Shown: positions 20,109 to 33,938 of the stretch, in pieces
Position numbering within the stretch: position 1 is the first letter of the stretch
How the letters are laid out: each line of letters opens with the position of its first letter
Assembly: GCA_016286165.1 (NCBI GenBank)
Contig: JAEESE010000006.1
Span: forward strand, 78,633 to 142,632
Source of the DNA: Bacteroidaceae bacterium
GTDB lineage: Bacteria; Bacteroidota; Bacteroidia; Bacteroidales; Bacteroidaceae
DNA: 64,000 bases
Reading direction: 5' to 3'
Notes under the pieces: generated by a model
What the model was told of the DNA's origin: nothing
What the model saw: the letters and a program-made list of their open reading frames with translations, nothing else
The model's database searches: none
Program-made: the position numbers and the translations under genes

Positions 20109-23018
20109 ATGAAAAAACTGCTCTCCATGCTGGGCATTTTTGTCTGCCTGGCTCATCTTTCATTTGCACAAGATTCCACTTCCCTCGCTCCCGAGGGGCT
20201 GGAGAGCAGACCGGCGGTCGGTTCTCCTTCCCACCGCTTCAATACAGCTGATTTCACATCCGTTCCCGCCCTCTCCGCCTTTGGCGGTCAGGGCGTGAGC
20301 GGTGCTTTTGCCGGTGTCGTAAACAATAGCCCGCTCGGCCAGTATGTGATAGTGGCCGGCGGTTGCAATTTCCCTGACACACCGGCAGCCGAGGGCGGAC
20401 AGAAAGTGTTCTACACCGACATCTATGCCCTCCCGCTCGCATATGCTGCTCCTGACGATTATCCCCGTTCAGGAGGTTGGCAACGTGTCGGCGCTATGCC
20501 CTGTGGCCTGGCTTATGGCGCCAGCGTCACCACCCCCGAAGGTGTCGTTTGCCTCGGCGGTACTTCCGACGGACAGAAGAGCGAGGATTTCGCCGTGCTG
20601 CTTACTATGGACGACAGCCTCGGCATCCAATCCCAGGACATTCCTCTTCTGCCTACTTCTCTCGACAATTTCGCTGCCGCCTATGGCGACGGCTATATAT
20701 ATGTGGCTGGTGGTCAGCACAATGGCATCCCCAATCGCAAGGCTTACCGCCTCCGCTGGCCGCTCGGCGCAGCTTGGGAAGAGCTGCCTGACATGCCCGG
20801 CCCTATGCGCCTGCAACCGTCTGCCGCAGTGCAGAAAGGCGCTCTTGCCGCCAATTTCTACCTACTTGGCGGCTTTGATCCTCGCTACGGCAAAGCCGTT
20901 GCCAACGGCGTTTACTATGATACGAGAAAGCGTGAGTGGCTGGCTACTTCCTTAATGCAGACCAGACCGGCCCCCCTGTCGTCCCCCGAGGGGGACACGG
21001 ATGCTTTGCCTTCTGTCAACAATACAATAGAAGCCCCCTCGGGGGCCGTAGGGGGGGCCGCTCTTTCCTTGGTCGGCGCTTCCGCCATCCCCTCCGGCGC
21101 AGCCCATATCCTCTGTTTCGGCGGTGTCGACAAGGACATCTTCGAGGCTGCCCTTGCGCGTAACGCTCTCATCGCCGACACCACGACCACTGCCGACCGT
21201 CTTGCCGAGCTGCGCGACGAAGCTTATTCCTATATGACGCAAGACCCCGCGTGGTACAAGTTCCGCCGCTCCATTCTCGTCTATCACACAGTCACTGATT
21301 CGTGGGCAGAGGTTTTCGATAGCCCCCTTATAGCCCGTGCCGGAGCGGCTGTAGTGCCTGTGCCGTCGGGCACTGGGTCCTCGTCCCTCTCCGCCCTTGT
21401 CATCGGCGGCGAAGAGAAGCCCGGAGTGCGTTCGTCCGATGTCACCCGTGTGGACATCGGTTATACAGCCCATTTCGGTTGGCTCAACTGGACAGTGCTC
21501 ATTCTCTACCTATTGGGCATGGTCTATCTGGGCTACTACTTCATGAAGCGCGCCTCGAACTCCACCGACGATTTCTTCAAAGGCGGCGGCCGCATACCCT
21601 GGTGGGCGGCAGGCATCAGCATCTTCGCCACTATGCTCAGCGCCATCACCTACATGAGTATTCCTGCCAAGGCTTACGCCACCGACTGGACCTACTATCC
21701 CATGCAGATCTGCATCCTGTTGGTGTCGTTCCCTGTCATTAGATATTACTTGCCGTTCTTCCGTCGTCTCAACGTCACCACGGCTTACGAATACCTTGAG
21801 CGCCGCTTCAACTCGGCTACGCGCCTCATGGCCAGCATCCTGTTCATCGTATTCATGGTGGCCAGAACAGCTCTCGTGCTCTTCCTTCCGTCGCTGGCGA
21901 TGACTGCCGTAACGGGCATCAATATCTACATATGTATAGCCCTGATGGCGCTCATCACCATCCTCTACTGCACGATGGGCGGTGTTGAGGCCGTAGTCTG
22001 GGGCGATGTCATCCAAGGCATCATCCTCGTTGGCGGAGCCGTTCTCGCTGCCGTTTATCTTATCGTCAACACAGGCGACAACGGTGCTTCGGATTTCTTC
22101 CATATTGCCACCGACAACGACAAGTTCCGCCTATTCCTCTTCGACCCCGAACATCCGTTCGACTTCGTCAATGCCACCTGGTGGGTGGTCATCCTCGGCG
22201 GCTTGGCCAACAACCTCATCTCCTACACCAGCGACCAGACCGTAATTCAGCGTTACCTGACCACCAGCGACGAGAAGAGTGCAGCGCGTGGTATCCTCAC
22301 CAACGGCCTCATGTCCGTCGTGGTGACCATCGCCTTCTTCACCATCGGCACAGGCCTTTACACCTTCTTCAAGACGCATCCAGCCGAACTCGACATCACC
22401 ATGGCCAAGGGCGATGCCATCTTCCCCTTCTTCATGATGAGCCAGTTGCCAGCAGGTCTCGCCGGCCTCCTCATCGCTGCCGTCTTCGCTGCCACCATGT
22501 CCACCATCGCCTCAAATATCAATAGTATTTCTACGGCATTCACAGTGGATTTGTGGAGCAAGCTGAAGAAGATGACTCCCCTTTCGTCTGCTGACATCGA
22601 AGGTAATGAAGCCCCCTCGGGGGCCGTAGGGGGGGCCGGCACCGTTCGTGTCGCTCGCATCGCAGGCATCTGCGCCGGCATGCTCGGCATGGCTATTGCC
22701 TGGCTGATGGCAACCGTTGATATCCAGTCATTGCTCGACTACTTCAACACCATCCTCGGCCTCTTGAGCGGCGCCATCGGCGGCCTGTTCCTCATGGGTA
22801 TCTTCTTCCCGCGCATCGGTTCCAAGGCTGCCATCATCGGCTTCCTCTGCGGTACAGCCACCGTTCTTTACATGAACTTCTACACCAACGCCAACTTCCT
22901 CCTCTTCGGCTTCGTCTCTATGCTCGTCAGCGTCCTCGTCGCCCTCTTCCTCAGTATCTTTATGCCGCAGACTGAGGAGCAGAAGGGGTTGACATGGAAG
23001 ACATTGCAAAAGGAATAA
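20109..23018 (+). CDS. Fusion protein: Kelch/beta-propeller cyclically permuted mutarotase (NanM-like) + sodium:solute symporter (SSS family)
   Basis: Signal peptide present. The first roughly 450 aa carry Kelch-type GG repeats (VAGGCNF, CLGGTSDG, YVAGGQHNG, YLLGGFD, CFGGVDKD, VIGGEEKP). From about aa 455 there are multiple TM helices with SSS motifs (DFFKGGGRIPWW, TAYEYLERRF, GGVEAVVWGDVIQ). Confidence 0.85.
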   Translation: MKKLLSMLGIFVCLAHLSFAQDSTSLAPEGLESRPAVGSPSHRFNTADFTSVPALSAFGGQGVSGAFAGVVNNSPLGQYVIVAGGCNFPDTPAAEGGQKVFYTDIYALPLAYAAPDDYPRSGGWQRVGAMPCGLAYGASVTTPEGVVCLGGTSDGQKSEDFAVLLTMDDSLGIQSQDIPLLPTSLDNFAAAYGDGYIYVAGGQHNGIPNRKAYRLRWPLGAAWEELPDMPGPMRLQPSAAVQKGALAANFYLLGGFDPRYGKAVANGVYYDTRKREWLATSLMQTRPAPLSSPEGDTDALPSVNNTIEAPSGAVGGAALSLVGASAIPSGAAHILCFGGVDKDIFEAALARNALIADTTTTADRLAELRDEAYSYMTQDPAWYKFRRSILVYHTVTDSWAEVFDSPLIARAGAAVVPVPSGTGSSSLSALVIGGEEKPGVRSSDVTRVDIGYTAHFGWLNWTVLILYLLGMVYLGYYFMKRASNSTDDFFKGGGRIPWWAAGISIFATMLSAITYMSIPAKAYATDWTYYPMQICILLVSFPVIRYYLPFFRRLNVTTAYEYLERRFNSATRLMASILFIVFMVARTALVLFLPSLAMTAVTGINIYICIALMALITILYCTMGGVEAVVWGDVIQGIILVGGAVLAAVYLIVNTGDNGASDFFHIATDNDKFRLFLFDPEHPFDFVNATWWVVILGGLANNLISYTSDQTVIQRYLTTSDEKSAARGILTNGLMSVVVTIAFFTIGTGLYTFFKTHPAELDITMAKGDAIFPFFMMSQLPAGLAGLLIAAVFAATMSTIASNINSISTAFTVDLWSKLKKMTPLSSADIEGNEAPSGAVGGAGTVRVARIAGICAGMLGMAIAWLMATVDIQSLLDYFNTILGLLSGAIGGLFLMGIFFPRIGSKAAIIGFLCGTATVLYMNFYTNANFLLFGFVSMLVSVLVALFLSIFMPQTEEQKGLTWKTLQKE
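21030..21060 (+). repeat. GC-rich palindromic element, in-frame copy 1 (encodes EAPSGAVGGA)
   Basis: gaagccccctcgggggccgtagggggggccg is identical to 22608-22638 and in the same codon phase. A related palindrome, gtcccccgagggggac, lies at 20981-20996. Confidence 0.9.
22608..22638 (+). repeat. GC-rich palindromic element, in-frame copy 2 (encodes EAPSGAVGGA)
   Basis: Identical 31-mer inside the symporter half of the same ORF. Confidence 0.9.
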
Positions 23019-24416: not shown

Positions 24417-24872
24417 ATGAAACTCGCTGAAGCTTTAAGCATCCGCAAGGATCTGCAAAAACGTATCCAACAGATAGGGAAACGTTTGGAAGATAACGTG
24501 AAGATACAGGAGGGCGACGAACCAGCCGAGAACCCGAAGGAACTGATGAAGGAATTGGACGAATGCCTGAAACAATTGGAAAACCTGATTTGGCGTATTA
24601 ACCTGACAAACGTTCAGACCGTGAATGAGGCAGGTAAGACCGTCACGCAACTGATGGCAGAGAAAGATGTACTTTCGTTACGCTTGTCGACTTTACGCGG
24701 CACTTTCGACAGGGCTTCTTCGCAACACGATCGTTATTCCCGTTCTGAAATAAAGATGATTACGGTGGTAGATGTCAAGCAACTGAGCAAGCAGATTGAC
24801 GAATACTCAGCTGCGCTACGCAAGCTTGATATGGAAATTCAGACGTTGAATTTCCAGACCGAACTCGTCTGA
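24417..24872 (+). CDS. DIP1984-family (septicolysin-like) coiled-coil protein
   Basis: MKLAEALSIRKDLQKRIQQ...ENPKELMKELDECLKQLENLIWRINLTN...RYSRSEIKMITVVDVKQL...LNFQTELV matches my memory of the DIP1984 family consensus. Confidence 0.6.
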   Translation: MKLAEALSIRKDLQKRIQQIGKRLEDNVKIQEGDEPAENPKELMKELDECLKQLENLIWRINLTNVQTVNEAGKTVTQLMAEKDVLSLRLSTLRGTFDRASSQHDRYSRSEIKMITVVDVKQLSKQIDEYSAALRKLDMEIQTLNFQTELV

Positions 24873-25214: not shown

Positions 25215-26126
25215 ATGATTAGCAAAACTTATTATCGATATATCTGGCTGCTGAACTTGTTGCTTGATAGCGACCCTCTCACATTTGATGAGATCTGTAT
25301 GATGTGGAAAATGAATCCGGCGTTCGATGGTCCTTTACCCATCCGTACGTTCCACGAGCATCGGAAGGGCATCAAAGAGATGTTTGGCGTGGACATCGAA
25401 TGCGACCGTTCGAAGGGTAATGTCTATTACGTCAAGAATCCGGAGGTCTTGGGGAAGATGAAACTGGAGAAGTGGTTGTTGCGTAATTATAGCATTCCAC
25501 AGGACTTTGTGACCTTCAACGCTATGAAGGACCGTATCCTGCTGGAGGAGATACCGCTGGGGCAGGCTTTCTTGGATCATATCATCGAAGCGATGAAGTC
25601 GAACGTGGAACTGCGGATAGAATACCAGCGATATGAATACGGGCAGGACACTCATCGACAAACGATTCACATGCAACCATACGCCCTGAAGGTCTATAAC
25701 CGTCGTTGGTATCTGTTGGGCTATCTGAAGGAACAAGATGCCTTGCGCATCATCTCGTTAGACCGCATTCTAAGCTTGCAAGTGCTAAAGACCTTCTTTG
25801 AACTGCCTTCAAACTTCAATGCAAGGAAATACTTCGCTGATGTGGTCGGCATCTTCGTGAACGAAGATCTTCCTGTGACCAAAGTGAAGATTCGCGCCTA
25901 CGGTACTCAGGCAGAATACCTTCGCTCTACTCCGCTCCATAAAAGCCAATCCGAAGGTCGCTCCAAATATCGTGAGTTTGCAGAATTCACCTATAGACTG
26001 TGCATAACACCAGAGTTGGTCACTCAGTTGCTAGCAATGGGGGACAAGGTAGAGGTGCTGGAGCCGGAGGAGTTGAGAGAAGAGATGAAAGAAGAATTAA
26101 TTAAATGTTTAACAAATTATAAATAG
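25215..26126 (+). CDS. WYL-domain transcriptional regulator (wHTH-WYL-WCX, BrxR/CapW-like architecture)
   Basis: 303 aa. It has an N-terminal wHTH-like region (YRYIWLLNLLLDSDPLTFDEI), the WYL signature VYNRRWYLLGY, and a C-terminal extension ending ...VEVLEPEELREEMKEEL. Confidence 0.8.
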   Translation: MISKTYYRYIWLLNLLLDSDPLTFDEICMMWKMNPAFDGPLPIRTFHEHRKGIKEMFGVDIECDRSKGNVYYVKNPEVLGKMKLEKWLLRNYSIPQDFVTFNAMKDRILLEEIPLGQAFLDHIIEAMKSNVELRIEYQRYEYGQDTHRQTIHMQPYALKVYNRRWYLLGYLKEQDALRIISLDRILSLQVLKTFFELPSNFNARKYFADVVGIFVNEDLPVTKVKIRAYGTQAEYLRSTPLHKSQSEGRSKYREFAEFTYRLCITPELVTQLLAMGDKVEVLEPEELREEMKEELIKCLTNYK

Positions 26127-26130
26127 TGTT

Positions 26131-26889
26131 ATGCAAATATCAAATAAAAATGGTAAAATAATTACTTGCCTCTCAACATGGAAAGATGCTTTTATTGAAG
26201 TTGACAATCCAAAGCATTGGAAACCAGGTAGGAGCGCTCATTCTTTAGCTCTTCATTTTACACGCCCATCAATAAATGGTTCTAAAGGAATAGATGTTTT
26301 ATCGGAATATCTTGGATATCTGGGATTTAAAAATGTTTTATTCGATTATGCAGAAATAGAGCATGAGAGCCGTTTTGATACCTTCCGTGGAAATGGACGT
26401 ATTCAAGATTTAATGATTTGGGCAAAAAGCGGAAATCGCCCTTTAGCTATATGTATAGAAGCCAAGGTTGATGAAACATTTGATAAGAATGTACCAGATG
26501 CGTATAAAGAAAGAATGATTTATTCTTCCAAGAGACCTAAGAGCAAAACCCTTGATAGATTAAACTATATTTGTAAGCACTATTATAAAGTTGAACCCAA
26601 TAGTAGTGAACTGAATGATATTCGATATCAACTTCTTTACTATCTAGCAGGCTCTATCACTGAGGCCAAAAAAATTGATGGCGTTGCATTTATGCCAGTC
26701 TTTGTTTACCATACAGATTCATACAACGATCAAAATGGAGATAATAACAAAAAAGACTATGAGACATTTATCAAATCACTTAATTTTTCTTCTATAAGGG
26801 TTAATGACACAATCCAAATGTATAAGAATAAAATTGACGGCGTTGATGTTTATAGTGCATATATCGAAATAGAAAAAAATGATTATTAA
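26131..26889 (+). CDS. PD-(D/E)xK nuclease-fold protein (possibly DUF6946-like)
   Basis: It starts 4 nt after the WYL gene stop. The candidate catalytic pattern is EHESRFD ... IQDLMIW ... ICIEAKVDE (E / D / ExK). The N-terminal WKDAF...HWKPGRSAHSLALHF resembles my recollection of DUF6946. This is unverified. Confidence 0.5.
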   Translation: MQISNKNGKIITCLSTWKDAFIEVDNPKHWKPGRSAHSLALHFTRPSINGSKGIDVLSEYLGYLGFKNVLFDYAEIEHESRFDTFRGNGRIQDLMIWAKSGNRPLAICIEAKVDETFDKNVPDAYKERMIYSSKRPKSKTLDRLNYICKHYYKVEPNSSELNDIRYQLLYYLAGSITEAKKIDGVAFMPVFVYHTDSYNDQNGDNNKKDYETFIKSLNFSSIRVNDTIQMYKNKIDGVDVYSAYIEIEKNDY

Positions 26890-26970
26890 TAATTTAAAAT
26901 AAGAGATACCTTTGTAAAATCTATTTTATCTTCATTTTTAGAATAAATATATAGAATACATCTCCTTTCT

Positions 26971-27011
26971 GCGGCGTTTTTGCATAACAAACAGCAAAAA
27001 CGTCGTTTTTT
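26971..27011 (+). terminator. Intrinsic terminator of the WYL-nuclease operon (first copy of a duplicated cassette)
   Basis: gcggcgtttttgc-ataacaaaca-gcaaaaacgtcg followed by tttttt. The 12-bp stem contains one G-U pair, which is valid only on the plus-strand RNA. Confidence 0.8.
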
Positions 27012-27085
27012 GTGACTTTTCATTCGTATATATATATTTATAGGGGCTGGTATGAAAAGGTGTGCCCCATGATGTTTCACTAAAA

Positions 27086-27093
27086 TATATTTG
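27086..27093 (+). promoter_or_regulatory. -7 box TATATTTG upstream of the 101-aa acidic membrane protein gene
   Basis: Exact TAnnTTTG match 45 nt upstream of the ATG at 27138. Confidence 0.5.
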
Positions 27094-27137
27094 TATATGG
27101 CATTACATATTATTTTATTCGCGACAAAGAAGGTCGC

Positions 27138-27443
27138 ATGGAAAAGATTCTGGACGATAAGGAGTATGATAGTTATCAAATGAGAAAGGGATGCTTTCAG
27201 TTCCTGTTAGCTGCTGCTCTTATAGGCTTGGCGGTTTATGGTAGCACCATGCAAGAGCCTGAAGACTCCTCAGATGCACAGACGGAGACGCCCACAATAG
27301 AGACTGAAGAAACCATTGAAATGAAAGAGGAGGAAGCGTCATCCGAGGAAGAGGACTTAGAAGATGTAAAAACAGAAACCGAAGACACCTCTTCTGTCAT
27401 TGACGAAGATGAATTGGTACAGCGGTTCAAGGAGAATCAGTAA
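27138..27443 (+). CDS. Small membrane-anchored protein with an extremely acidic tail
   Basis: 101 aa with one TM helix (CFQFLLAAALIGLAVYG). The 62-residue tail is about 40% D/E (EPEDSSDAQTETPTIETEETIEMKEEEASSEEEDLEDVKTETED...). Confidence 0.6.
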   Translation: MEKILDDKEYDSYQMRKGCFQFLLAAALIGLAVYGSTMQEPEDSSDAQTETPTIETEETIEMKEEEASSEEEDLEDVKTETEDTSSVIDEDELVQRFKENQ

Positions 27444-27507
27444 GAATAAAAGAATAGATTTATAAACACTTAGCAGTTCGTCCGACACGTAGATAGGGCT
27501 ATGTCAC

Positions 27508-27921
27508 ATGAAAATAACTGAGAAATACGTAAACGAGTCGCATCTTGAAGAGGTTTATCAACTCTTGCATAAAGGTGAAAAGTTGATTGATCTTGACTTG
27601 GAAAACGTGAAGAGTGTGCTTGTAGGAAAAGAGGGCATTCTTTACGAGGCCTATAAAGACGGCGGTGCAGAGAATGGCGCCTTTATGGAAGAATTCTTTG
27701 ATACGGTGAAAAAGATGGAAATGGTTCAAAACTGCACAGGAATACTATTCAACATAACCATGCCGGATGATGATCAATTGATGATGGAGGATATGGACAT
27801 TATCAATTGCTTCCTCAAATTATTTGAAGAAAAGAATATGATGATTCGTTGGGGGTTAAGGGTTGATGAGCAGGGAAGCCAGACATCTATATTAATGATC
27901 TGCACTAAAGATAAACAGTAA
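27508..27921 (+). CDS. Stand-alone FtsZ C-terminal-domain-like protein
   Basis: 137 aa. By eye it aligns along its length with E. coli FtsZ residues about 205-316. The matched pairs are LIDLDLENVKSVL vs LINVDFADVRTVM, CTGILFNITMPDDDQLMMEDMD vs ARGVLVNITAGFDLRLDEFE, and TSILMICTK vs LRVTVVATG. There is no N-terminal GTP-binding domain. Confidence 0.6.
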   Translation: MKITEKYVNESHLEEVYQLLHKGEKLIDLDLENVKSVLVGKEGILYEAYKDGGAENGAFMEEFFDTVKKMEMVQNCTGILFNITMPDDDQLMMEDMDIINCFLKLFEEKNMMIRWGLRVDEQGSQTSILMICTKDKQ

Positions 27922-27982
27922 AAGTGCGGAGCCAGTATTGGGCCTTCTTACACCCAAATTCCACAAATTACATATCCTTTCT

Positions 27983-28022
27983 GCGGTGTTTTTGCACATC
28001 AAACAGCAAAAACGCCGTTTTT
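27983..28022 (+). terminator. Intrinsic terminator (second copy of the duplicated cassette)
   Basis: gcggtgtttttgc-acatcaaaca-gcaaaaacgccg followed by ttttt. The wobble pair is U-G here, versus G-U at the same stem position in copy 1. Confidence 0.8.
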
Positions 28023-28083
28023 GTATCTATTCTTTCGTATATATATAATAGAGGGCTATTCCTCTTAACGAGTAAAAGTAGTA

Positions 28084-28434
28084 ATGATGCAAGAACAGAA
28101 GACACTAACCGTGACAGACATCTTGGGCAACGCAGTCAACACACCGTTGCTCAGTAATGAGGAAGAAATCCGTATGTCAAAGAAGGTAAGAGAGGGTGAT
28201 GAGGCGGCTATCAAGGAGTTCAAACAATGCAATGCGCGCTTCGTGGCGGCAGTCGCCAAGCAGTACACCGACCGAGGCATGACCATCGACGAGCTGATGG
28301 AGGCGGGCTACGACGGACTCATAGAAGCAGCATGTAAGTACGACGAGAAAGACGGATTCAAGTTTATCAGCTATGCCGTTTGGTGGATTCGACAAAACAT
28401 TCTACAAGTCCTATTTGCACCAGCTTCGAACTAA
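28084..28434 (+). CDS. Sigma-70 family protein truncated to regions 1.2-2.4 (sigma-2 domain only)
   Basis: TPLLSNEEEIRMSKKVREGDEAAIKEFKQCNARFVAAVAKQYTDRGMTIDELMEAGYDGLIEAACKYDEKDGFKFISYAVWWIRQNI aligns colinearly with primary-sigma regions 1.2-2.4. The ORF stops 10 codons after WWIRQ. There are no regions 3 or 4. Confidence 0.75.
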   Translation: MMQEQKTLTVTDILGNAVNTPLLSNEEEIRMSKKVREGDEAAIKEFKQCNARFVAAVAKQYTDRGMTIDELMEAGYDGLIEAACKYDEKDGFKFISYAVWWIRQNILQVLFAPASN

Positions 28435-28474
28435 AAAGAATCAAATAGATAACCAATCTCAATACTTACATCTT

Positions 28475-28936
28475 ATGATTACAACAAGACTTACAACCAA
28501 GAAATCCGAATTCCGTGAGATGCTCAGCAAGCTCAACGCCCAGCAAAAGCGTCTCTTCAGTCCCGATGAGGTGGATTACCTCTCGAACTGCAATAGCTTT
28601 GAGTATCTGGAGTTCAAGCAGGAAGATGAGGATGACGATGAATTCCTCAAGCAGTTTTCCACCTGGCTGCACGAGTGCCCCAAGCATCAGGGGCACGTGG
28701 ATTACTATGTCCTGTTCTATCTCTGTATGGGCGAGACGCTGACCCGAGATCAGTTCGAGTACATGGAGCGGAACGTCGCCGAATGCTTCGACACTAGCCA
28801 CGGCTGGATCTACGAGATCAACAACCGTATTCGCTTCAAGATGCGTGTCCGTCTGATATGCAGTTACAAGAACAAGATGCGTCGTCTGACAAGAAAGGAT
28901 TGGAGAGAAGGAACTGAGATTGACGAAAACAAATGA
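28475..28936 (+). CDS. Hypothetical protein with a weak sigma region-4-like HTH (possible second half of a split sigma factor)
   Basis: The ATG at 28475 was chosen because the longer 28373 start overlaps the sigma-2 ORF. YYVLFYLCMGETLTRDQ...VAECFDTSHGWIYEINNRIRFKMR loosely resembles region 4.1-4.2 (xxVLxLRFG...xxEVGxxFGVTRERIRQIExKALRKLR). It also has an acidic stretch, QEDEDDDEF. Confidence 0.4.
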   Translation: MITTRLTTKKSEFREMLSKLNAQQKRLFSPDEVDYLSNCNSFEYLEFKQEDEDDDEFLKQFSTWLHECPKHQGHVDYYVLFYLCMGETLTRDQFEYMERNVAECFDTSHGWIYEINNRIRFKMRVRLICSYKNKMRRLTRKDWREGTEIDENK

Positions 28937-28955
28937 TTGGATTAACCGTAACGTC

Positions 28956-29849
28956 ATGAAAGAGACCACAACGAAGATATTGAAGAGACTTGTCGCCGAA
29001 GGCATGAAAATGCGCTATGGCGACAACCCTGACAGAAAAGTGAAACTGAGAATACTATGGGAGCTGAAGCATATCATAGATGCCGGCTTCGAGGGCCACT
29101 ATATCATGGTCTTTAGGTTATTCAGGCATTATGCTGAGACCGTAAAGATGGGCTATAGGGGGCGCGGCGCGATGTGTTCCTCTATTGTTTGCTACTGCTT
29201 GGGCCTCACAGAGGTTGATCCTCTGCGCTTTGGCCTTCACTCGGCTCGTTTCGTAAACGATGAGCCGCCCAAGTTTCAATTTGACTTCGAGGCATCACAC
29301 TACGATGAGTTCATGCAAGGGGCACAGCATCTGCTTGTAGCTAATGCAAAGGACTACGACATGGAGGTCGTGCGCTTGTCTCTGGATGTCACACCGATGG
29401 CATATCTGAGCAGGAAACGTGAAGCGCCAGAGCCTGAGGACCTCGATGATGAGATAGCGCGTGATGCCCTTATTCGACCTGACACGATGGACTTGTATGA
29501 TGCTTACATGCGTCGCAAAAGTGACGGGCTCTGGACGAGACATGGTGGACGTCTCGATGAGATACTGGCTCCTACCTGCGGATTTTTGGTATATCAAGAG
29601 CAAATGCTGGACATCCTTCGCCAGTTCTTTCACGTGAGCGGAATCAAGGCCAACCAAATCCGCCTGAGCATTCAACGAGGAGACACAGAGCAAGTTGAAA
29701 CTTACAAGCAGGAACTCTTTGCTCACCTCGAAGACCTCACAGAGAAAAAGGCCGAATGGCTCTGGCAACTCCTCACCAGCAATCCTCATGCCTTCCTGAA
29801 AGCTCATGCGGTTAGTCGTGTGCTGGCAAAGTGTCATTTTGAATATTAA
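28956..29849 (+). CDS. Miniature DnaE (Pol III alpha)-like protein lacking the catalytic aspartates
   Basis: Segment 1, ELKHIIDAGFEGHYIMVF...GYRGRGAMCSSIVCYCLGLTEVDPLRFGLHSARFVNDEPPKFQFDF, aligns with DnaE ELQVINQMGFPGYFLIV...[48 protein letters not shown]. Segment 2, ALIRPDT...YMRRKSDG...LAPTCGFLVYQEQMLDILRQ...ANQIRLSIQRGD...FLKAHAVSRV, aligns with the fingers region (ALFRPGP...FIDRKHG...LEPTYGIILYQEQVMQIAQ...ADMLRRAMGKKK...FNKSHSAAYA). The ATG at 28956 is preferred over the TTG at 28920. Confidence 0.65.
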   Translation: MKETTTKILKRLVAEGMKMRYGDNPDRKVKLRILWELKHIIDAGFEGHYIMVFRLFRHYAETVKMGYRGRGAMCSSIVCYCLGLTEVDPLRFGLHSARFVNDEPPKFQFDFEASHYDEFMQGAQHLLVANAKDYDMEVVRLSLDVTPMAYLSRKREAPEPEDLDDEIARDALIRPDTMDLYDAYMRRKSDGLWTRHGGRLDEILAPTCGFLVYQEQMLDILRQFFHVSGIKANQIRLSIQRGDTEQVETYKQELFAHLEDLTEKKAEWLWQLLTSNPHAFLKAHAVSRVLAKCHFEY

Positions 29850-29884
29850 TCGACAAAATAATAGTGAGAATAACAGAAAAAGTG

Positions 29885-29892
29885 TATTTTTG
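29885..29892 (+). promoter_or_regulatory. -7 box TATTTTTG for the PD-(D/E)xK / MBL operon
   Basis: Exact TAnnTTTG match 21 nt upstream of the ATG at 29913. Confidence 0.5.
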
Positions 29893-29912
29893 CAGAGTAA
29901 TAAATCGTTAAA

Positions 29913-30806
29913 ATGAATTTTATGGATAAAAAGTATTTCAAATTAAACAAGGATGCAGCATTATTTGAGTTTTTGTCTCATAAGCCTATGTGGTGGAAAT
30001 TGCTTTTAGAGGACAAGGACTTATATGTGAATATTAGAAAAGAAAACAGGATAAATGTTTATTATCGTGGAGCTTCTATAATGAGCCTTAGTTATAATGA
30101 TGGCAAGGTAACAGCTGAAATTCATAACTATTACTTGGGATTTGAGAAGGATACATGTGCTGCTTTAGGAATCAAATACGGCAATCAAAAGAAAGCCCCC
30201 GAAGAAATCGTTTGCAGACTTCCGATGATAAAGAAACGAGTAGAGGCGAACAAGAAGTACATCGCTTGTTTAGAGGAGGAAGGAATGGTAGGGAACATCT
30301 ATTCAAGTGAAAAGTATGTTCAATCACAACTCTATATGAATGATAACCATTACTTCGATACTGAATTTGCACTCAGGTTGGATGATGGCACAGATATCAG
30401 AATAGATTTGGTAAGAATGTCTGATCATGGCGAAATCTGCTTCGTGGAACTGAAATTGATTGATGACCAGCGACTTTATCCATCAAGTGGAAGAGATGCT
30501 GAGATCATTACCCAGATGGAAAATTATGAAAGATTCCTTTTAGAAGCTAATAAGTTGAAAGGAAAAACTGGTAAACCAATTCTTATCGAATATTATACAA
30601 CAGTCTTGGAAATTATGGAGAAGATAGGTATTCACCGTACATCCATTAAACCTGTAATGGTACATGACAAAGTCTTTCTCTTTATAAAACAAACCTACAC
30701 AAAGAAATCTTCAGGAAGAGAAAAACGCCTGAACACAATTAAAAAAGTATGTGATGGTTTATACTCCAATATTGATGATGTTTTAACGGATTATAATAGC
30801 CTATGA
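29913..30806 (+). CDS. PD-(D/E)xK nuclease-fold protein
   Basis: 297 aa. The candidate core is SEKYVQSQL ... IRIDLVRMSDHGEICFVELKLID (E / D / ExK spacing typical of restriction-endonuclease-like folds). Its stop overlaps the next start (ATGA at 30803-30806). Confidence 0.5.
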   Translation: MNFMDKKYFKLNKDAALFEFLSHKPMWWKLLLEDKDLYVNIRKENRINVYYRGASIMSLSYNDGKVTAEIHNYYLGFEKDTCAALGIKYGNQKKAPEEIVCRLPMIKKRVEANKKYIACLEEEGMVGNIYSSEKYVQSQLYMNDNHYFDTEFALRLDDGTDIRIDLVRMSDHGEICFVELKLIDDQRLYPSSGRDAEIITQMENYERFLLEANKLKGKTGKPILIEYYTTVLEIMEKIGIHRTSIKPVMVHDKVFLFIKQTYTKKSSGREKRLNTIKKVCDGLYSNIDDVLTDYNSL

Positions 30807-32026
30807 CCATTACCATTCATCGCGGCCTTGACCAGATAGGCGGCTGCATAACTGAGATAAGTACAGCAACGTCCCGCATCTTTGTGGATATGGGGCAGAA
30901 TCTACCAGGCAATGGTGAGAAAACCACACCGGCGCAGGACAAGGAGATGGTGGAAGGGCTGTTCAAGAACAACCCCAAAGCACATGAAGCCGTCATCTAT
31001 ACTCATGCACATGAAGATCATATAGGACTCTTTGATTATGTGCCGAAGGGCGTTCCTCAGATGATAGGAGAAGGTGCCAAGGATGTCTTGCTGGAAAAAT
31101 ACAGGTTGCTGTGCAAGGCTGATGAGGCAGCAGGAAATGACCCTGCTACAAATCTTCGGAAACGAGCAAAGCTAAAACGTTTTAAGACGTGGCCTCGAAG
31201 CCGTGATCCCAAACCATTCAGCGTTGGCGATATACAGATTACGCCCTTCTTCAACTGCCATTCCATCTATGACTCCTATATGTTTCTGATTGAGGCCGAC
31301 AGTAAGCGCGTCTGGCATATGGGCGACTATCGTCAGCACGGCTGGATGGGTGGCAAGTTGCTGCAACTGCTGAGATGGAGGGCCACGAATATCGACACCT
31401 TAATTACGGAAGGTACAATGCTTGGGCGTGAAGAGGAATGTATCACAGAAAAAGAGGTGTCTGAAAAGATGGCCCACGTGATGCGTGCCTTTAAATATGT
31501 CTTCGTACTGACCTCTGCCACAGACATTGAGCGTCTTGCCAGCATCAATTTGGCAGCAAGGCAAGTGAACAGGCCGCTCTATGTCAGCTCAGGGCTTTTG
31601 AATGCAGCAATGAAAATCTTTACTCATCGTGAAGCGAAGACACCTGGCGACCTGTTCTTTTTCAAGCCTCGTTACTATGGTGGGTTTAAGCATTTGGAAC
31701 CAATGAGAAAACGTGGTTTTGTGATGATTACCAACGTTGGAAAGTTTGTGGACATGGATAATCTTCGCCGTGAATTGCCAGAGAGTGAAACCCTACTCAT
31801 CTATTCCTCATGGGACGGCTACTACAATGACCCAGAGCAAGTGCGCCTCAATCCGATGTATGCCATGTTTCGCGGAGCGTTTCACAACGTAGTAGATATC
31901 CATACTTCTGGCCATGCCGACCGAAAGACCATCAAGCAGGTCATCGAGACCATCCATCCCAAGGAGGTCATCTGTATTCACAAAGAAAAAGGACAGTCGT
32001 TGGAGTCATTAGGAATACATTATTGA
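30803..32026 (+). CDS. Metallo-beta-lactamase fold nuclease of the beta-CASP / RNase J-like type
   Basis: Motifs HAHEDHIG (HxHxDH), FNCHS, HMGDY, the TEGT beta-CASP motif A-like element, and C-terminal HTSGHADRKTIKQVIETIHPKEVICIHKE (motif C). Confidence 0.75.
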   Translation: MTITIHRGLDQIGGCITEISTATSRIFVDMGQNLPGNGEKTTPAQDKEMVEGLFKNNPKAHEAVIYTHAHEDHIGLFDYVPKGVPQMIGEGAKDVLLEKYRLLCKADEAAGNDPATNLRKRAKLKRFKTWPRSRDPKPFSVGDIQITPFFNCHSIYDSYMFLIEADSKRVWHMGDYRQHGWMGGKLLQLLRWRATNIDTLITEGTMLGREEECITEKEVSEKMAHVMRAFKYVFVLTSATDIERLASINLAARQVNRPLYVSSGLLNAAMKIFTHREAKTPGDLFFFKPRYYGGFKHLEPMRKRGFVMITNVGKFVDMDNLRRELPESETLLIYSSWDGYYNDPEQVRLNPMYAMFRGAFHNVVDIHTSGHADRKTIKQVIETIHPKEVICIHKEKGQSLESLGIHY

Positions 32027-32155: not shown

Positions 32156-32869
32156 CTATTTTACATAGTCTGGGTCGAAGTGGCTATGGTATTCTAAGCA
32201 CAATTGTCGGTAGTATTCTCGCGTGGTGTCGCTTGTCGTGTCAGAACGGATGATCTCATAATAGTAATGTGATAGTCCTGGCTCTAGGCCGGTCTCTGTA
32301 TGGATGACGTTGTATAGCGAATCGCCCAGCACGGGTCGGCAGACGTCCTCGGGATTTGCTGCATAGAACATGCGGTAACTCTTCACCTGTACCTCTGTCT
32401 GCAAATACTCGAATGCCATGTTAAAGAGGTCGCCCCAATAGCCACGGTTGCTGGTCTGGTGCTTGTAACTGCCGAAGATACCGCGCTCAGTGGCTGTTGA
32501 TTTCACGTCGTCGATGACAATACTTATCTTATCATATTCGCAGACAACGGTGGTGCGTGCCAGATCCTTCAGCTCGAATGGCCTGGATTTATCGGAACGG
32601 CATTTGCGCTCGGCGCTCTCACGGGTCTTGTAGTCAAGAGGCGTGGTTTTACCGTTGTGGCGTGCAGCCACCTCTTCGGCAAGTGCCTGTGTCGGTGGGC
32701 CATATATTTGAGCCCACCTAATGGCCTGATCCAGTTCGGCCTGAAATTCTTTTTCTAATTGTTGCTCCGCATCGATAGGGTCGTCTTCGCGGTCGCAGGA
32801 GACGAAGAAGAAGCTGAAGGTGAGGACGGCGATCAGCATCCACAATTGTCGTAAAGATTTCATTATCAT
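32156..32869 (-). CDS. Lipoprotein with a RelA/SpoT-like (small alarmone synthetase-type) nucleotidyltransferase domain
   Basis: The start was moved to the ATG at 32869, giving MIMKSLRQLWMLIAVLTFSFFFVSC (lipobox). Synthetase-type motifs are present in order: YKTRESAERKCR, LKDLARTTVVCE, RGYWGDLF, TEVQVKSYRMFYA. Confidence 0.6.
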   Translation of the reverse strand: MIMKSLRQLWMLIAVLTFSFFFVSCDREDDPIDAEQQLEKEFQAELDQAIRWAQIYGPPTQALAEEVAARHNGKTTPLDYKTRESAERKCRSDKSRPFELKDLARTTVVCEYDKISIVIDDVKSTATERGIFGSYKHQTSNRGYWGDLFNMAFEYLQTEVQVKSYRMFYAANPEDVCRPVLGDSLYNVIHTETGLEPGLSHYYYEIIRSDTTSDTTREYYRQLCLEYHSHFDPDYVK

Positions 32870-32942
32870 GGTAAGTTTGATGTTTCTGTTTGTAAAGGTA
32901 GTGAAAAATACGTGAAAGGCATGCCCTTTAGTGGATTTTTTA

Positions 32943-32950
32943 TATCTTTG
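32943..32950 (+). promoter_or_regulatory. -7 box TATCTTTG upstream of the oxidoreductase gene
   Basis: Exact TAnnTTTG match 29 nt upstream of the ATG at 32979. Confidence 0.55.
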
Positions 32951-32978
32951 CGCCCAGAAACGATAATATCCACAACTA

Positions 32979-33938
32979 ATGAATATCGCAATCATTGGCA
33001 CAGGAAAGATTGTTCACGAGGCGCTGCCGGTGATCGTTGGGACCGAAGGCATCGTGGTGCGCAGCATCTGGTGCCGTGAGCATTCGTTGGCGAAGGCGGA
33101 GGCGTTGGCGGCGCAGTTCGGCATTCCGCAGGTTGCGACGGATTATGCAGCGGTATTGGCTGACCCACAGGTCGATACCGTATATGTTGCTCTCGTCAAC
33201 AGCGTTCATTACGCCTATGCCTTGCAGGCGTTGCAAGCAGGAAAAAACGTTATCCTTGAGAAGCCGGCGTGCATGAGTCATCGCGAGCTTGCCCGTCTGG
33301 CCGAGGAAGCGCGAGGCCGTGGGCTGATGCTCTTCGAGGCCGTCACGCTGTTGCACTTGCCCGCCTTCCATCTCCTTCAAACAGAGCTGCTGCCGCAGTT
33401 GGGCGCCATTCGCCATGTCGAGTGCAACTACAGCCAACGCTCCAGCCGTTATGATGCTTATTTGCGTGGTGAAGTGCTGCCCGCCTTCGACCCGTCGGTT
33501 GGTGGCGGTGCGCTCATGGACATCAATATCTACAATCTCCATTTCGTCATTGCCCTCTTCGGCAAGCCCGATTCAGCTCGTTACTATTGCCGTCGCGGCT
33601 TCAATGGCGTAGATTTGTCGGGGACGGTGGTGATGAACGCGCCGCTCAGCCTCTGTACTGGCGCTAAGGATACCGATGCGCCGAGCTTTGGACTGCTGCA
33701 GGGCGACAACGGATGGTTGCGCATCGAGGGACCTGTCAGCACGATGGCGGCCATGACCATTTGTCTTCGTGGTCAGCAGCCGCGACAAATTCCCCTTGCG
33801 CCCGTCAGCCATCGCCTGGCCCCCGAGTTCGCGGCCTTCGCTGATATCCTCCGTCGGCAGGACTTCGCCACGATGAACAGCCTGCTCGACCATTCCCTCG
33901 CCGTCATGAAGGTGGTGGATGAGATCGTGTCAGATTAA
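32979..33938 (+). CDS. Gfo/Idh/MocA family oxidoreductase
   Basis: N-terminal Rossmann motif MNIAIIGTGKIVHEA plus EKPACMSHRELARL, which is typical of the family. Confidence 0.85.
   Translation: MNIAIIGTGKIVHEALPVIVGTEGIVVRSIWCREHSLAKAEALAAQFGIPQVATDYAAVLADPQVDTVYVALVNSVHYAYALQALQAGKNVILEKPACMSHRELARLAEEARGRGLMLFEAVTLLHLPAFHLLQTELLPQLGAIRHVECNYSQRSSRYDAYLRGEVLPAFDPSVGGGALMDINIYNLHFVIALFGKPDSARYYCRRGFNGVDLSGTVVMNAPLSLCTGAKDTDAPSFGLLQGDNGWLRIEGPVSTMAAMTICLRGQQPRQIPLAPVSHRLAPEFAAFADILRRQDFATMNSLLDHSLAVMKVVDEIVSD

Follow-up and report, generated by a model that had tools for sequence, protein, structure and literature searches.

The alpha subunit of bacterial DNA polymerase III (Pol III alpha, DnaE) is a C-family enzyme in which epsilon binds the PHP domain, the clamp binds an internal motif and tau binds the C-terminus. 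Here we describe a much shorter relative, termed mini-DnaE, together with the gene island that encodes it, from a Bacteroidaceae bacterium (GCA_016286165.1, contig JAEESE010000006.1, positions 78,633–142,632 of the forward strand; this stretch of 64,000 nucleotides (nt) is referred to as the window). Mini-DnaE is homologous to Pol III alpha (2hpi, 4iqj, 5lew, 2hnh) in two blocks and shares its fold and its arrangement of palm and fingers, keeping the motifs GRG(S/A), RF(L/V)N, YQEQ, one Arg of RRAMGKK and F(N/L)K(S/A)H, but it measures ~300 amino acids (aa) against the ~1100–1200 aa of DnaE, carries Lys and Gln in place of catalytic Asp residues and lacks most of the domains.

The DnaE open reading frames (ORFs) of phages (for example those of Pseudomonas phage PA5 and Corynebacterium phage P1201 in BFVD) are, like mini-DnaE, shorter than the bacterial enzyme, but the split phage forms consist of two parts of 460–650 aa each which together rebuild a polymerase. 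ImuB offers a parallel in concept only, being a polymerase fold that has lost catalysis and serves binding or scaffolding in a stress-induced operon (PMC6511836); it differs from mini-DnaE in having a Y-family rather than a C-family fold and in keeping a clamp-binding motif and a near-full-length architecture, and, unlike the ImuB setting, the surroundings of mini-DnaE contain neither imuA nor dnaE2. Regulators of the wHTH-WYL-WCX type (BrxR/CapW) sense single-stranded DNA (ssDNA) and head defence islands which, like the island described here, are variable, horizontally acquired and nuclease-bearing operons (PMC9122601, PMC9122588, PMC11662680). The cargo differs, since it here comprises miniature essential proteins and no catalogued system, and the present island is, from its gene content, a candidate for a defence role.

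SulA and MciZ bind the C-terminal domain of FtsZ, which is likewise kept in the island, and the nucleotide-binding leucine-rich repeat (NLR) immune receptors of plants carry integrated decoys. An isolated bottom-gate fragment of GyrA, GyrA14, suffices to bind the attacking toxin CcdB (PMC1635281), and such a fragment of an essential protein can therefore serve as a decoy in principle; the bottom gate of GyrA is also kept here. Those examples are a laboratory fragment and eukaryotic receptors, whereas the candidate mimics of the present island are naturally encoded. We know of no earlier account of an operon that naturally encodes stand-alone bacterial mimics of DnaE, FtsZ, sigma or GyrA together, and a search of the full-text literature returned no inactive DnaE-like protein, no PF07733 protein in defence, no decoys of FtsZ, sigma or gyrase and no operon of this kind. 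Mini-DnaE represents a known fold in a new, non-catalytic form, and the surrounding operon, judged by its gene content, may be a new kind of system.

Anatomy and fold of mini-DnaE

The mini-DnaE ORF (Table 1) is intact from ATG to stop, and 19 nt separate its ATG from the preceding stop codon at 28936, both as given in a preliminary description made from the DNA letters alone; the upstream gene, however, is a 153-aa ORF beginning at 28475 and not the 187-aa ORF from 28373. A TTG at 28920 is a possible alternative start (309 aa), but the homologues begin at the ATG (MKETTTKILK). Two Pfam profiles match above their gathering scores, namely PF07733 (DNA_pol3_alpha) on aa 8–121, corresponding to profile positions 2–118 of 260 (E 5e-20, 72.6 bits, cut-off 23.9), and PF17657 (fingers) on aa 159–258, corresponding to positions 60–162 of 166 (E 4e-14, 52.6 bits, cut-off 22). 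A phmmer comparison with the PDB pairs aa 9–118 with residues 315–427 of M. tuberculosis DnaE1 and aa 142–286 with residues 632–783, and the two blocks align likewise in the Taq and E. coli enzymes. The boundaries of the profiles and the PDB alignments thus bear out the two blocks recognized earlier, and the protein is composed of the first half of the palm, a linker and the middle of the fingers. The join between the blocks, put at about 45 residues in the preliminary description, does exist but comes to ~20–40 aa, depending on the aligner.

The alignments skip from residue 427 to residue 632 of M. tuberculosis DnaE1 and finish at ~783, and mini-DnaE itself stops ~12 aa past the FLKAHA motif. 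No match to the PHP domain (PF02811) was found with Pfam, and the second half of the palm, the thumb, the beta-binding region, the OB fold and the C-terminus are unmatched in Pfam and in the PDB alignments, so that the list of missing domains drawn up earlier holds in full. Because the regions that bind epsilon, the clamp and tau are absent, mini-DnaE cannot enter the replisome by the known contacts, and its sequence makes binding of known replisome partners unlikely.

The segment EPPKFQFDFEAS of mini-DnaE pairs with PDIDIDFDD in M. tuberculosis and PDIDTDF in Taq, PKFQFDF replacing PDxDxDF and K106 and Q108 replacing the two Asp residues of the motif; this placement, already proposed from the letters, is the same in the PDB alignments and is found throughout the family. 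The catalytic carboxylates, which we take to be D401, D403 and D555 in E. coli numbering, include a third residue lying on the half of the palm absent from mini-DnaE, and this third Asp is missing, the PF07733 profile being matched over positions 2–118 of 260 only. The change of GPGRGS to GYRGRGA was also confirmed by alignment, the Ser of GRGS being replaced by Ala, and the second Arg of RRAMGKK is a Leu. Against the full-length NCBIfam models, the cut-offs of which lie between 434 and 1800 bits, mini-DnaE reaches ~100 bits (100, 93 and 89 bits for TIGR00594, PRK05673 and PRK05672, with cut-offs of 434, 1002 and 939). Of the attributes of a C-family polymerase, mini-DnaE shows domain-level homology and the fold, but has neither the catalytic carboxylates nor the PHP domain, the thumb, clamp, OB and tau regions or a full-length score. 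It cannot be a conventional polymerase.

An AlphaFold2 model computed from a 118-sequence alignment has a predicted local distance difference test score (pLDDT) of 89 and a predicted template modelling score (pTM) of 0.87, and contains a three-stranded mini-sheet to which the linker contributes the third strand. Foldseek retrieves Pol III alpha and PolC only (best E 3e-10), and the query-normalized TM scores of 0.81–0.83 to Taq Pol III alpha (2hpi/4iqj) are obtained over alignments spanning ~500 columns; the palm and fingers blocks are therefore placed as in the full enzyme. A chance match is excluded by the E-values, the structural match and the existence of a family of homologues. Mini-DnaE is a folded, conserved and non-polymerising protein derived from Pol III alpha.

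Among 5.8 billion proteins searched, 490 matched mini-DnaE; the best 120 cover 94–100% of the query at 55–92% identity and are nearly all 266–350 aa in length, three being fusion proteins of 414–423 aa. In a library clustered at 50% identity, ~15 representatives at E<1e-30 are followed by a jump to full-length DnaE at ~33% identity, and this abrupt drop in score indicates that the family is narrow and well apart from real polymerases. All 27 genome matches come from rumen or gut Prevotellaceae, 'Bacteroidaceae' or Bacteroidales, mostly as metagenome-assembled genomes (MAGs) together with one isolate, HUN156. A phage or plasmid-borne origin was considered and rejected: IMG/VR contains no family member and gave a single remote DnaE match, GenBank phages gave no match covering 80% of the query, and in BFVD only full-length or split DnaE was matched.

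Family alignments of 24 and 118 members share the motif P-K/R-F-Q-F-D-h-E, in which P105, F107 and E112 are invariant and Q108 and D110 are each at least 90% conserved. The family also keeps R70, G71, R98, F99, N101, Q214, E215, R236, K282 and H284, which correspond to residues lining the nucleotide/primer-end cleft of DnaE. The ratio of non-synonymous to synonymous substitution rates (dN/dS, by Nei-Gojobori for pairs with 0.05<dS<1.5) varies from 0.10 to 0.37 over 45 pairs, with 0.16 as the median. Mini-DnaE is under purifying selection, which maintains the fold where palm and fingers meet and some of the lining of the nucleotide/primer-end cleft.

An operon of reduced essential proteins

The surroundings of mini-DnaE were compared over 112 loci from genomes and metagenomes, the ORFs of which were clustered (families c4, c5 and so on below). 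Of the 58 loci with 1.5 kb or more of sequence upstream of mini-DnaE, 54 have a sigma-like gene no further than 2.6 kb from it, and of the 40 loci with 4.5 kb or more, 38 have a WYL gene no further than 7 kb away. The gene directly upstream of mini-DnaE in the 58 loci is c4 in 23, sigma in 22 and c7 in 8, and a metallo-beta-lactamase (MBL)/beta-CASP gene is found in 25 of the 112 loci (15 of 24 among the first genome-derived loci with at least 3 kb upstream). The flanks differ among loci, the gene order is shuffled and one MAG carries two copies; the operon is horizontally acquired. Compared with WYL-regulated defence islands, it has the regulator at its head and a horizontal, variable and nuclease-bearing content, but no recognized anti-phage cargo according to PADLOC. 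The preliminary description had overlooked this context, namely a conserved WYL-regulated island with a sigma-like gene and mini versions of other essential proteins.

Alongside mini-DnaE the operon gathers reduced copies of sigma region 2, the FtsZ C-domain, the GyrA C-gate and a second piece of the DnaE palm. The mini-sigma of the window comprises sigma-70 regions 1.2 and 2 only, ending just past region 2.4 with regions 3 and 4 absent, and its NCBIfam matches to RpoS/RpoD (E 1e-25 to 3e-26) lie far below the full-length cut-offs; across the islands the sigmas measure 89–299 aa and consist of region 2 only, of regions 2 and 4 or of a full RpoD-like protein. Family c7 (m4; ~165 aa) is a palm-only second DnaE fragment, again the first half of the palm (profile against the PDB, E 2e-5 to DnaE1 336–438; Pfam PF07733 E 1.8e-8, above the cut-off), and is present at L020:9498-9998, L026:3921-4409 and 25 more loci. 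It too is without the Asp pair of PDxDxD and often sits directly between sigma and mini-DnaE. Family c6 (m7; ~140 aa, 20 loci, for example L003:10849-11286) matches residues 369–455 of GyrA, a bottom-gate region contained in the CcdB-binding GyrA14 fragment. GyrA/ParC account for 28 of its 30 profile matches, including all those at E<0.2 (best E 1.3e-4), and a precomputed PF00521 match in locus L033 backs the assignment; the dN/dS of c6, ~0.38, is above that of the other cassette genes. For FtsZ, a profile combining the 137-aa protein of the window with 160-aa ORFs from sister loci has FtsZ as all 22 of its 22 PDB matches (best E 4e-4, residues ~200–340), and the T7-loop Asp equivalent to E. 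coli D209 is retained in all mini-FtsZ-type proteins. The 160-aa ORFs follow mini-DnaE (L025:1005-1487, L027:10866-11348, L028:10866-11348) or are fused to it (L026:10901-11299). The 137-aa family taken alone had no FtsZ match in the PDB, and its hhalign comparison with an E. coli FtsZ sequence (E 7e-4 to 2e-3, low probability) is suggestive only.

Besides the FtsZ-C-like domain of L026, mini-DnaE is found fused to sigma, which is N-terminal in P0088 and C-terminal in P0124, to C-terminal WG (KWG-type) repeats (L021-23, L030, P0121, P0046), to a lectin-like domain of the 'major paralogous' type (P0123) and to a membrane helix with or without an outer domain (P0122, P0029); the ORFs in L021, L022, L023 and L030 reach 405–529 aa. 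The C-terminal extensions suggest that the mini-DnaE module has been combined with ligand-binding or sensor parts. A different variant occupies the mini-DnaE position in L033 (933-2753), where a 606-aa protein, P0127, joins a dead N-terminal mini-palm (PKFQFDI) to a thumb-less second DnaE core with intact GRGS, PDIDLDF, FDILGL and FNKSH motifs and the same C-terminal boundary as mini-DnaE. Its gene has sigma, a 166-aa ORF and a GyrA-like ORF as neighbours. P0129 resembles P0127 but continues into a transposase-like tail. These two proteins may represent an evolutionary intermediate or an active relative; the extra core of L033 is only ~38% identical to the full-length DnaE representatives compared, and its recent capture from a host dnaE is no more than a possibility.

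In the window the operon lies in a block of low G+C content at ~24.4–33.0 kb (33–50% against 54–62% in the flanks) between genes for sialic-acid and glycan (core sugar) utilization, and the genes from 25215 to 32026 are all on the plus strand and closely spaced (Table 1).

Table 1. Features of the mini-DnaE island, in window coordinates.
Feature	Position	Strand	Basis or remarks
WYL-WCX transcription regulator, head of the island	25215..26126	+	Pfam WYL E 8e-13, WCX E 2e-10; PADLOC WYL E 3e-32
DUF6946 protein with D...ExK motif	26131..26889	+	Pfam DUF6946 E 3e-24; aligns with c5 family
Repeated element, copy 1	26957..27036	+	Upstream of the c17/mini-FtsZ pair
Small protein with one predicted membrane helix and acidic tail, c17/c25 family	27138..27443	+	Family seen in 20 loci
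Mini-FtsZ, 137 aa	27508..27921	+	Combined-profile match to FtsZ C-terminal (T7-loop) domain
Repeated element, copy 2	27969..28047	+	~45 nt upstream of the mini-sigma start
Mini-sigma, 116 aa	28084..28434	+	Pfam Sigma70_r2 E 2e-11, r1_2 E 6e-6
c4, 153 aa	28475..28936	+	55 homologue clusters of 121–167 aa, most 142–155
Mini-DnaE, 297 aa	28956..29849	+	Pfam, PDB alignments, family alignments, AlphaFold2, Foldseek, dN/dS
c20, 297 aa, motif D165...E179-x-K181	29913..30806	+	Family in 12 loci; motif residues invariant
Metallo-beta-lactamase/beta-CASP (RNase J-like) hydrolase	30803..32026	+	Pfam Lactamase_B_2, RMMBL

The DUF6946 protein is, from its motif, a probable PD-(D/E)xK nuclease: its c5 family has a near-invariant D and an invariant E and K, and the same position in sister loci is taken by variable nuclease-like genes of the REase-ARP/PDDEXK_13 type (E 1e-37 to 1e-41). 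PDB profiles gave the c5/DUF6946 group only a non-significant AF1548 match at the D..ExK motif. Nuclease-type genes of the cassettes include REase-ARP/PDDEXK_13 and, judged by eye, c10, c12 and c20 with D..ExK-type motifs (c10 had no PDB profile matches), and a calcineurin-like phosphoesterase is among the other cassette genes. Protein c20 of the window may be a nuclease, given its invariant motif, and nothing was matched by it in Pfam, NCBIfam, PADLOC or PDB profiles. The MBL/beta-CASP ORF overlaps the c20 stop codon by 4 nt, and its match to the RNase J family of NCBIfam (E 5e-17) is below the cut-off. The small protein encoded at 27138 has no Pfam match.

Protein c4 has no Pfam domain and no sequence relatives beyond its own family. 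Its AlphaFold2 model (pLDDT 86) has a beta-alpha-beta-alpha-beta-beta topology, the best structural neighbours of which are, weakly, FtsZ C-domains (Foldseek E 6e-3, query-normalized TM 0.45), and its dN/dS is 0.14. Two identities for c4 were considered and set aside. As the C-terminal half of a PHP domain it would make c4 plus mini-DnaE colinear with DnaE, but the Pfam PHP match (E 0.005) is below the cut-off, the PDB profile search gave nothing relevant, and a hidden Markov model of c4 run against 100 full-length DnaE gave only scattered matches below 4 bits. Kinship by sequence to mini-FtsZ, FtsZ or c7 was likewise rejected (hhalign E 0.2–0.9).

PADLOC gave no match for mini-DnaE, c4, c20, the MBL protein or the DUF6946 protein, recognizing only the WYL regulator and the resemblance of the sigma fragment to MzaA, and membership in a catalogued defence system was accordingly rejected for the island cargo.

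The ~80-nt element present twice in the window (copies 87–91% identical) is specific to the island and consists of a palindrome, CGGYGTTTTTGC..GCAAAAACGCCG, a T-run and then an TCGTATATATA..AGAGGGC box; the palindrome arms are 12 bp long (CGGCGTTTTTGC-N8-10-GCAAAAACGCCG) and the box can be written TCGTATATATA..(A/G)GAGGGGC. It precedes the sigma gene by ~45–55 nt in ~20 related loci (L001-L030) and is also found before c5, c6, c7, c17 and c28 modules, with 1–2 copies per 20-kb locus, always in gene orientation; the subgroup L024-L028 has a different palindrome (GTGCAAGGTTTTTGCAC). The element could serve as a WYL operator, as a promoter for the island sigma or as a terminator/antiterminator, or could mark a junction at which modules are shuffled. 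A known RNA was sought in the island and the element, and Rfam returned no match at E<=1.

Other features were seen at the edges of the low-G+C block and beyond. A gene of the DIP1984/DUF6847 family (24417-24872, E 3e-52) lies within it, between the GlcNAc 2-epimerase and WYL genes, and is missing at that position in the closest relatives, L005 and L006. At its 3' edge an ORF of 281 aa on the minus strand (32156-33001) has a lipoprotein-like N-terminus and no Pfam match, and shares 23 nt with the beginning of the oxidoreductase gene downstream. The sialic-acid utilization cluster (DHDPS-family lyase, GlcNAc 2-epimerase) includes at 20109-23018 a 969-aa protein in which NanM-like Kelch repeats (sialate mutarotase) are joined to a sodium:solute symporter.

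Possible roles of mini-DnaE

The reading that we prefer, with a probability of roughly 0.35, is that mini-DnaE is a binding-only target mimic of the active-site cleft of the replicase in a conflict island, as the gene content suggests. Mini-DnaE would act through binding at the vestigial cleft and not through catalysis, presenting the active-site cleft of the replicative polymerase as a bait or decoy. The island would be an anti-phage or anti-toxin module switched on via the WYL regulator by DNA damage or ssDNA, in which the mimics would absorb foreign factors that attack replication, transcription, division or supercoiling, or report such factors to the nucleases. A conflict function is favoured because modules of essential machines, a regulator of the WYL class, horizontal mobility and variability, and nucleases come together in one operon, and the Mza anti-phage system counts a sigma-70-family protein among its named components (NCBIfam NF041931). 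The broader proposal, that the island is a new conflict system in which miniaturized inactive copies of essential machines serve as baits or decoys under WYL control by ssDNA or DNA damage, is more tentative still.

Several observations weigh against mini-DnaE as a target mimic. We know of no attacker of the DnaE cleft, and the retained blocks are only ~33% identical to real DnaE, a low fidelity for a mimic. Beyond the WYL regulator and the MzaA-like sigma, PADLOC finds no known defence protein in the island, and the nuclease genes may be neighbours with no connection to it. The sigma is full length in some loci and could there be simply a working sigma, the L033 variant of the cassette carries a DnaE core with intact catalytic motifs, and the FtsZ and GyrA assignments are based on profile matches at E ~1e-4.

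It is possible, though on balance unlikely, that the island is a dominant-negative checkpoint or abortive-infection module, in which release of the WYL repressor would let the mini-proteins poison their parent machines and bring about growth arrest or death: the FtsZ C-domain would cap filaments, sigma region 2 would occupy core RNA polymerase, the GyrA C-gate would disturb gyrase, mini-DnaE would block primer ends and the nucleases would degrade nucleic acid. The retained FtsZ T7-loop domain, sigma region 2 (the main core-binding region) and GyrA bottom-gate dimer interface are all protein-protein interface modules, nucleases share the operon, and tight WYL repression is typical of toxic immune operons (PMC9122588). 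Attractive as poisoning is for the FtsZ, sigma and GyrA pieces, it is weak for mini-DnaE, which has no obvious route to the replisome because the thumb, the duplex-binding beta-binding domain and the known partner-binding regions are missing; the full-length sigma of some loci also speaks against it. The strongest statistical link of mini-DnaE is instead with sigma, through adjacency (54 of 58 loci, with sigma the immediate upstream neighbour in 22), fusions in both orders (P0088 and P0124) and membrane variants, in which a membrane helix and outer domain after mini-DnaE (P0122, P0029) give an anti-sigma-like topology, and the conserved element precedes the sigma–mini-DnaE unit. That the DnaE fold has been re-used as a scaffold, acting as an anti-sigma, co-factor or adaptor for the island sigma and governing transcription from the promoter element, is nevertheless less probable again, as mini-DnaE shows no similarity to any known anti-sigma domain, sigmas consisting of region 2 alone are unlikely to work as sigmas, and the kept cleft residues of DnaE would be left unexplained together with the co-accumulated FtsZ, GyrA and second-DnaE pieces.

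Those cleft residues (R70, G71, R98, R236, R241, K282, H284) are what a sensor of nucleotides or DNA ends rests on, a role that we consider doubtful and lower in rank than the two preceding ones. The vestigial cleft would bind dNTPs, a modified nucleotide or a 3' end and signal to partners, perhaps with some chemistry left or shifted, and a new metal site might even be made up of the acidic residues D110 and E112, which follow on the same strand at a distance of two positions; the conservation of D110 (at least 90%) and E112 (invariant), the third strand given to the mini-palm by the linker and the cassette variant with an intact DnaE core (L033) are consistent with it. The strand of the third carboxylate and the Lys of the second palm half are, however, absent, GRGS has lost its Ser to Ala and RRAMGKK its second Arg to Leu, and PADLOC recognized no nucleotide-signalling partner genes. 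That mini-DnaE is a functionless, decaying remnant of a dnaE or dnaE2 copy might be supposed from its size, about one-quarter of DnaE, and its lack of catalytic residues, but hundreds of intact homologues with the same boundaries, dN/dS values of 0.10–0.37 in 45 pairs, a confident fold prediction and an operon context conserved over the 112 loci examined exclude it. The preliminary description had already judged the protein to be a non-catalytic derivative of DnaE and no random fragment, naming structure prediction, dN/dS and the profile and neighbours of homologues as checks, and each agrees: the model is compact, confident and superposes on Pol III alpha, the median dN/dS shows purifying selection, the homologues have similar short lengths and conserved sigma and WYL neighbours, and the loss of the Asp residues is family-wide. 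The functions that it put forward, those of a sensor, decoy or inhibitor binding DNA, dNTPs or replisome partners, are candidate roles.

As a natural minimal palm-plus-fingers core of a C-family polymerase predicted to fold alone, mini-DnaE would be useful for the study and engineering of Pol III alpha and for work on cleft inhibitors. If the dominant-negative explanation were true, the island would supply new natural inhibitors of four antibiotic-relevant targets. Mini-DnaE and the sigma-like protein are the constant members of an undescribed type of operon that gathers shrunken proteins of replication, transcription, division and supercoiling. If these proteins are indeed mimics in conflict, target mimicry would be a new principle of bacterial immunity, equivalent in prokaryotes to the decoys integrated into the immune receptors of plants, and it would suggest that gut and rumen Bacteroidales face new phage or bacteriocin factors directed against DnaE, sigma, FtsZ and gyrase.

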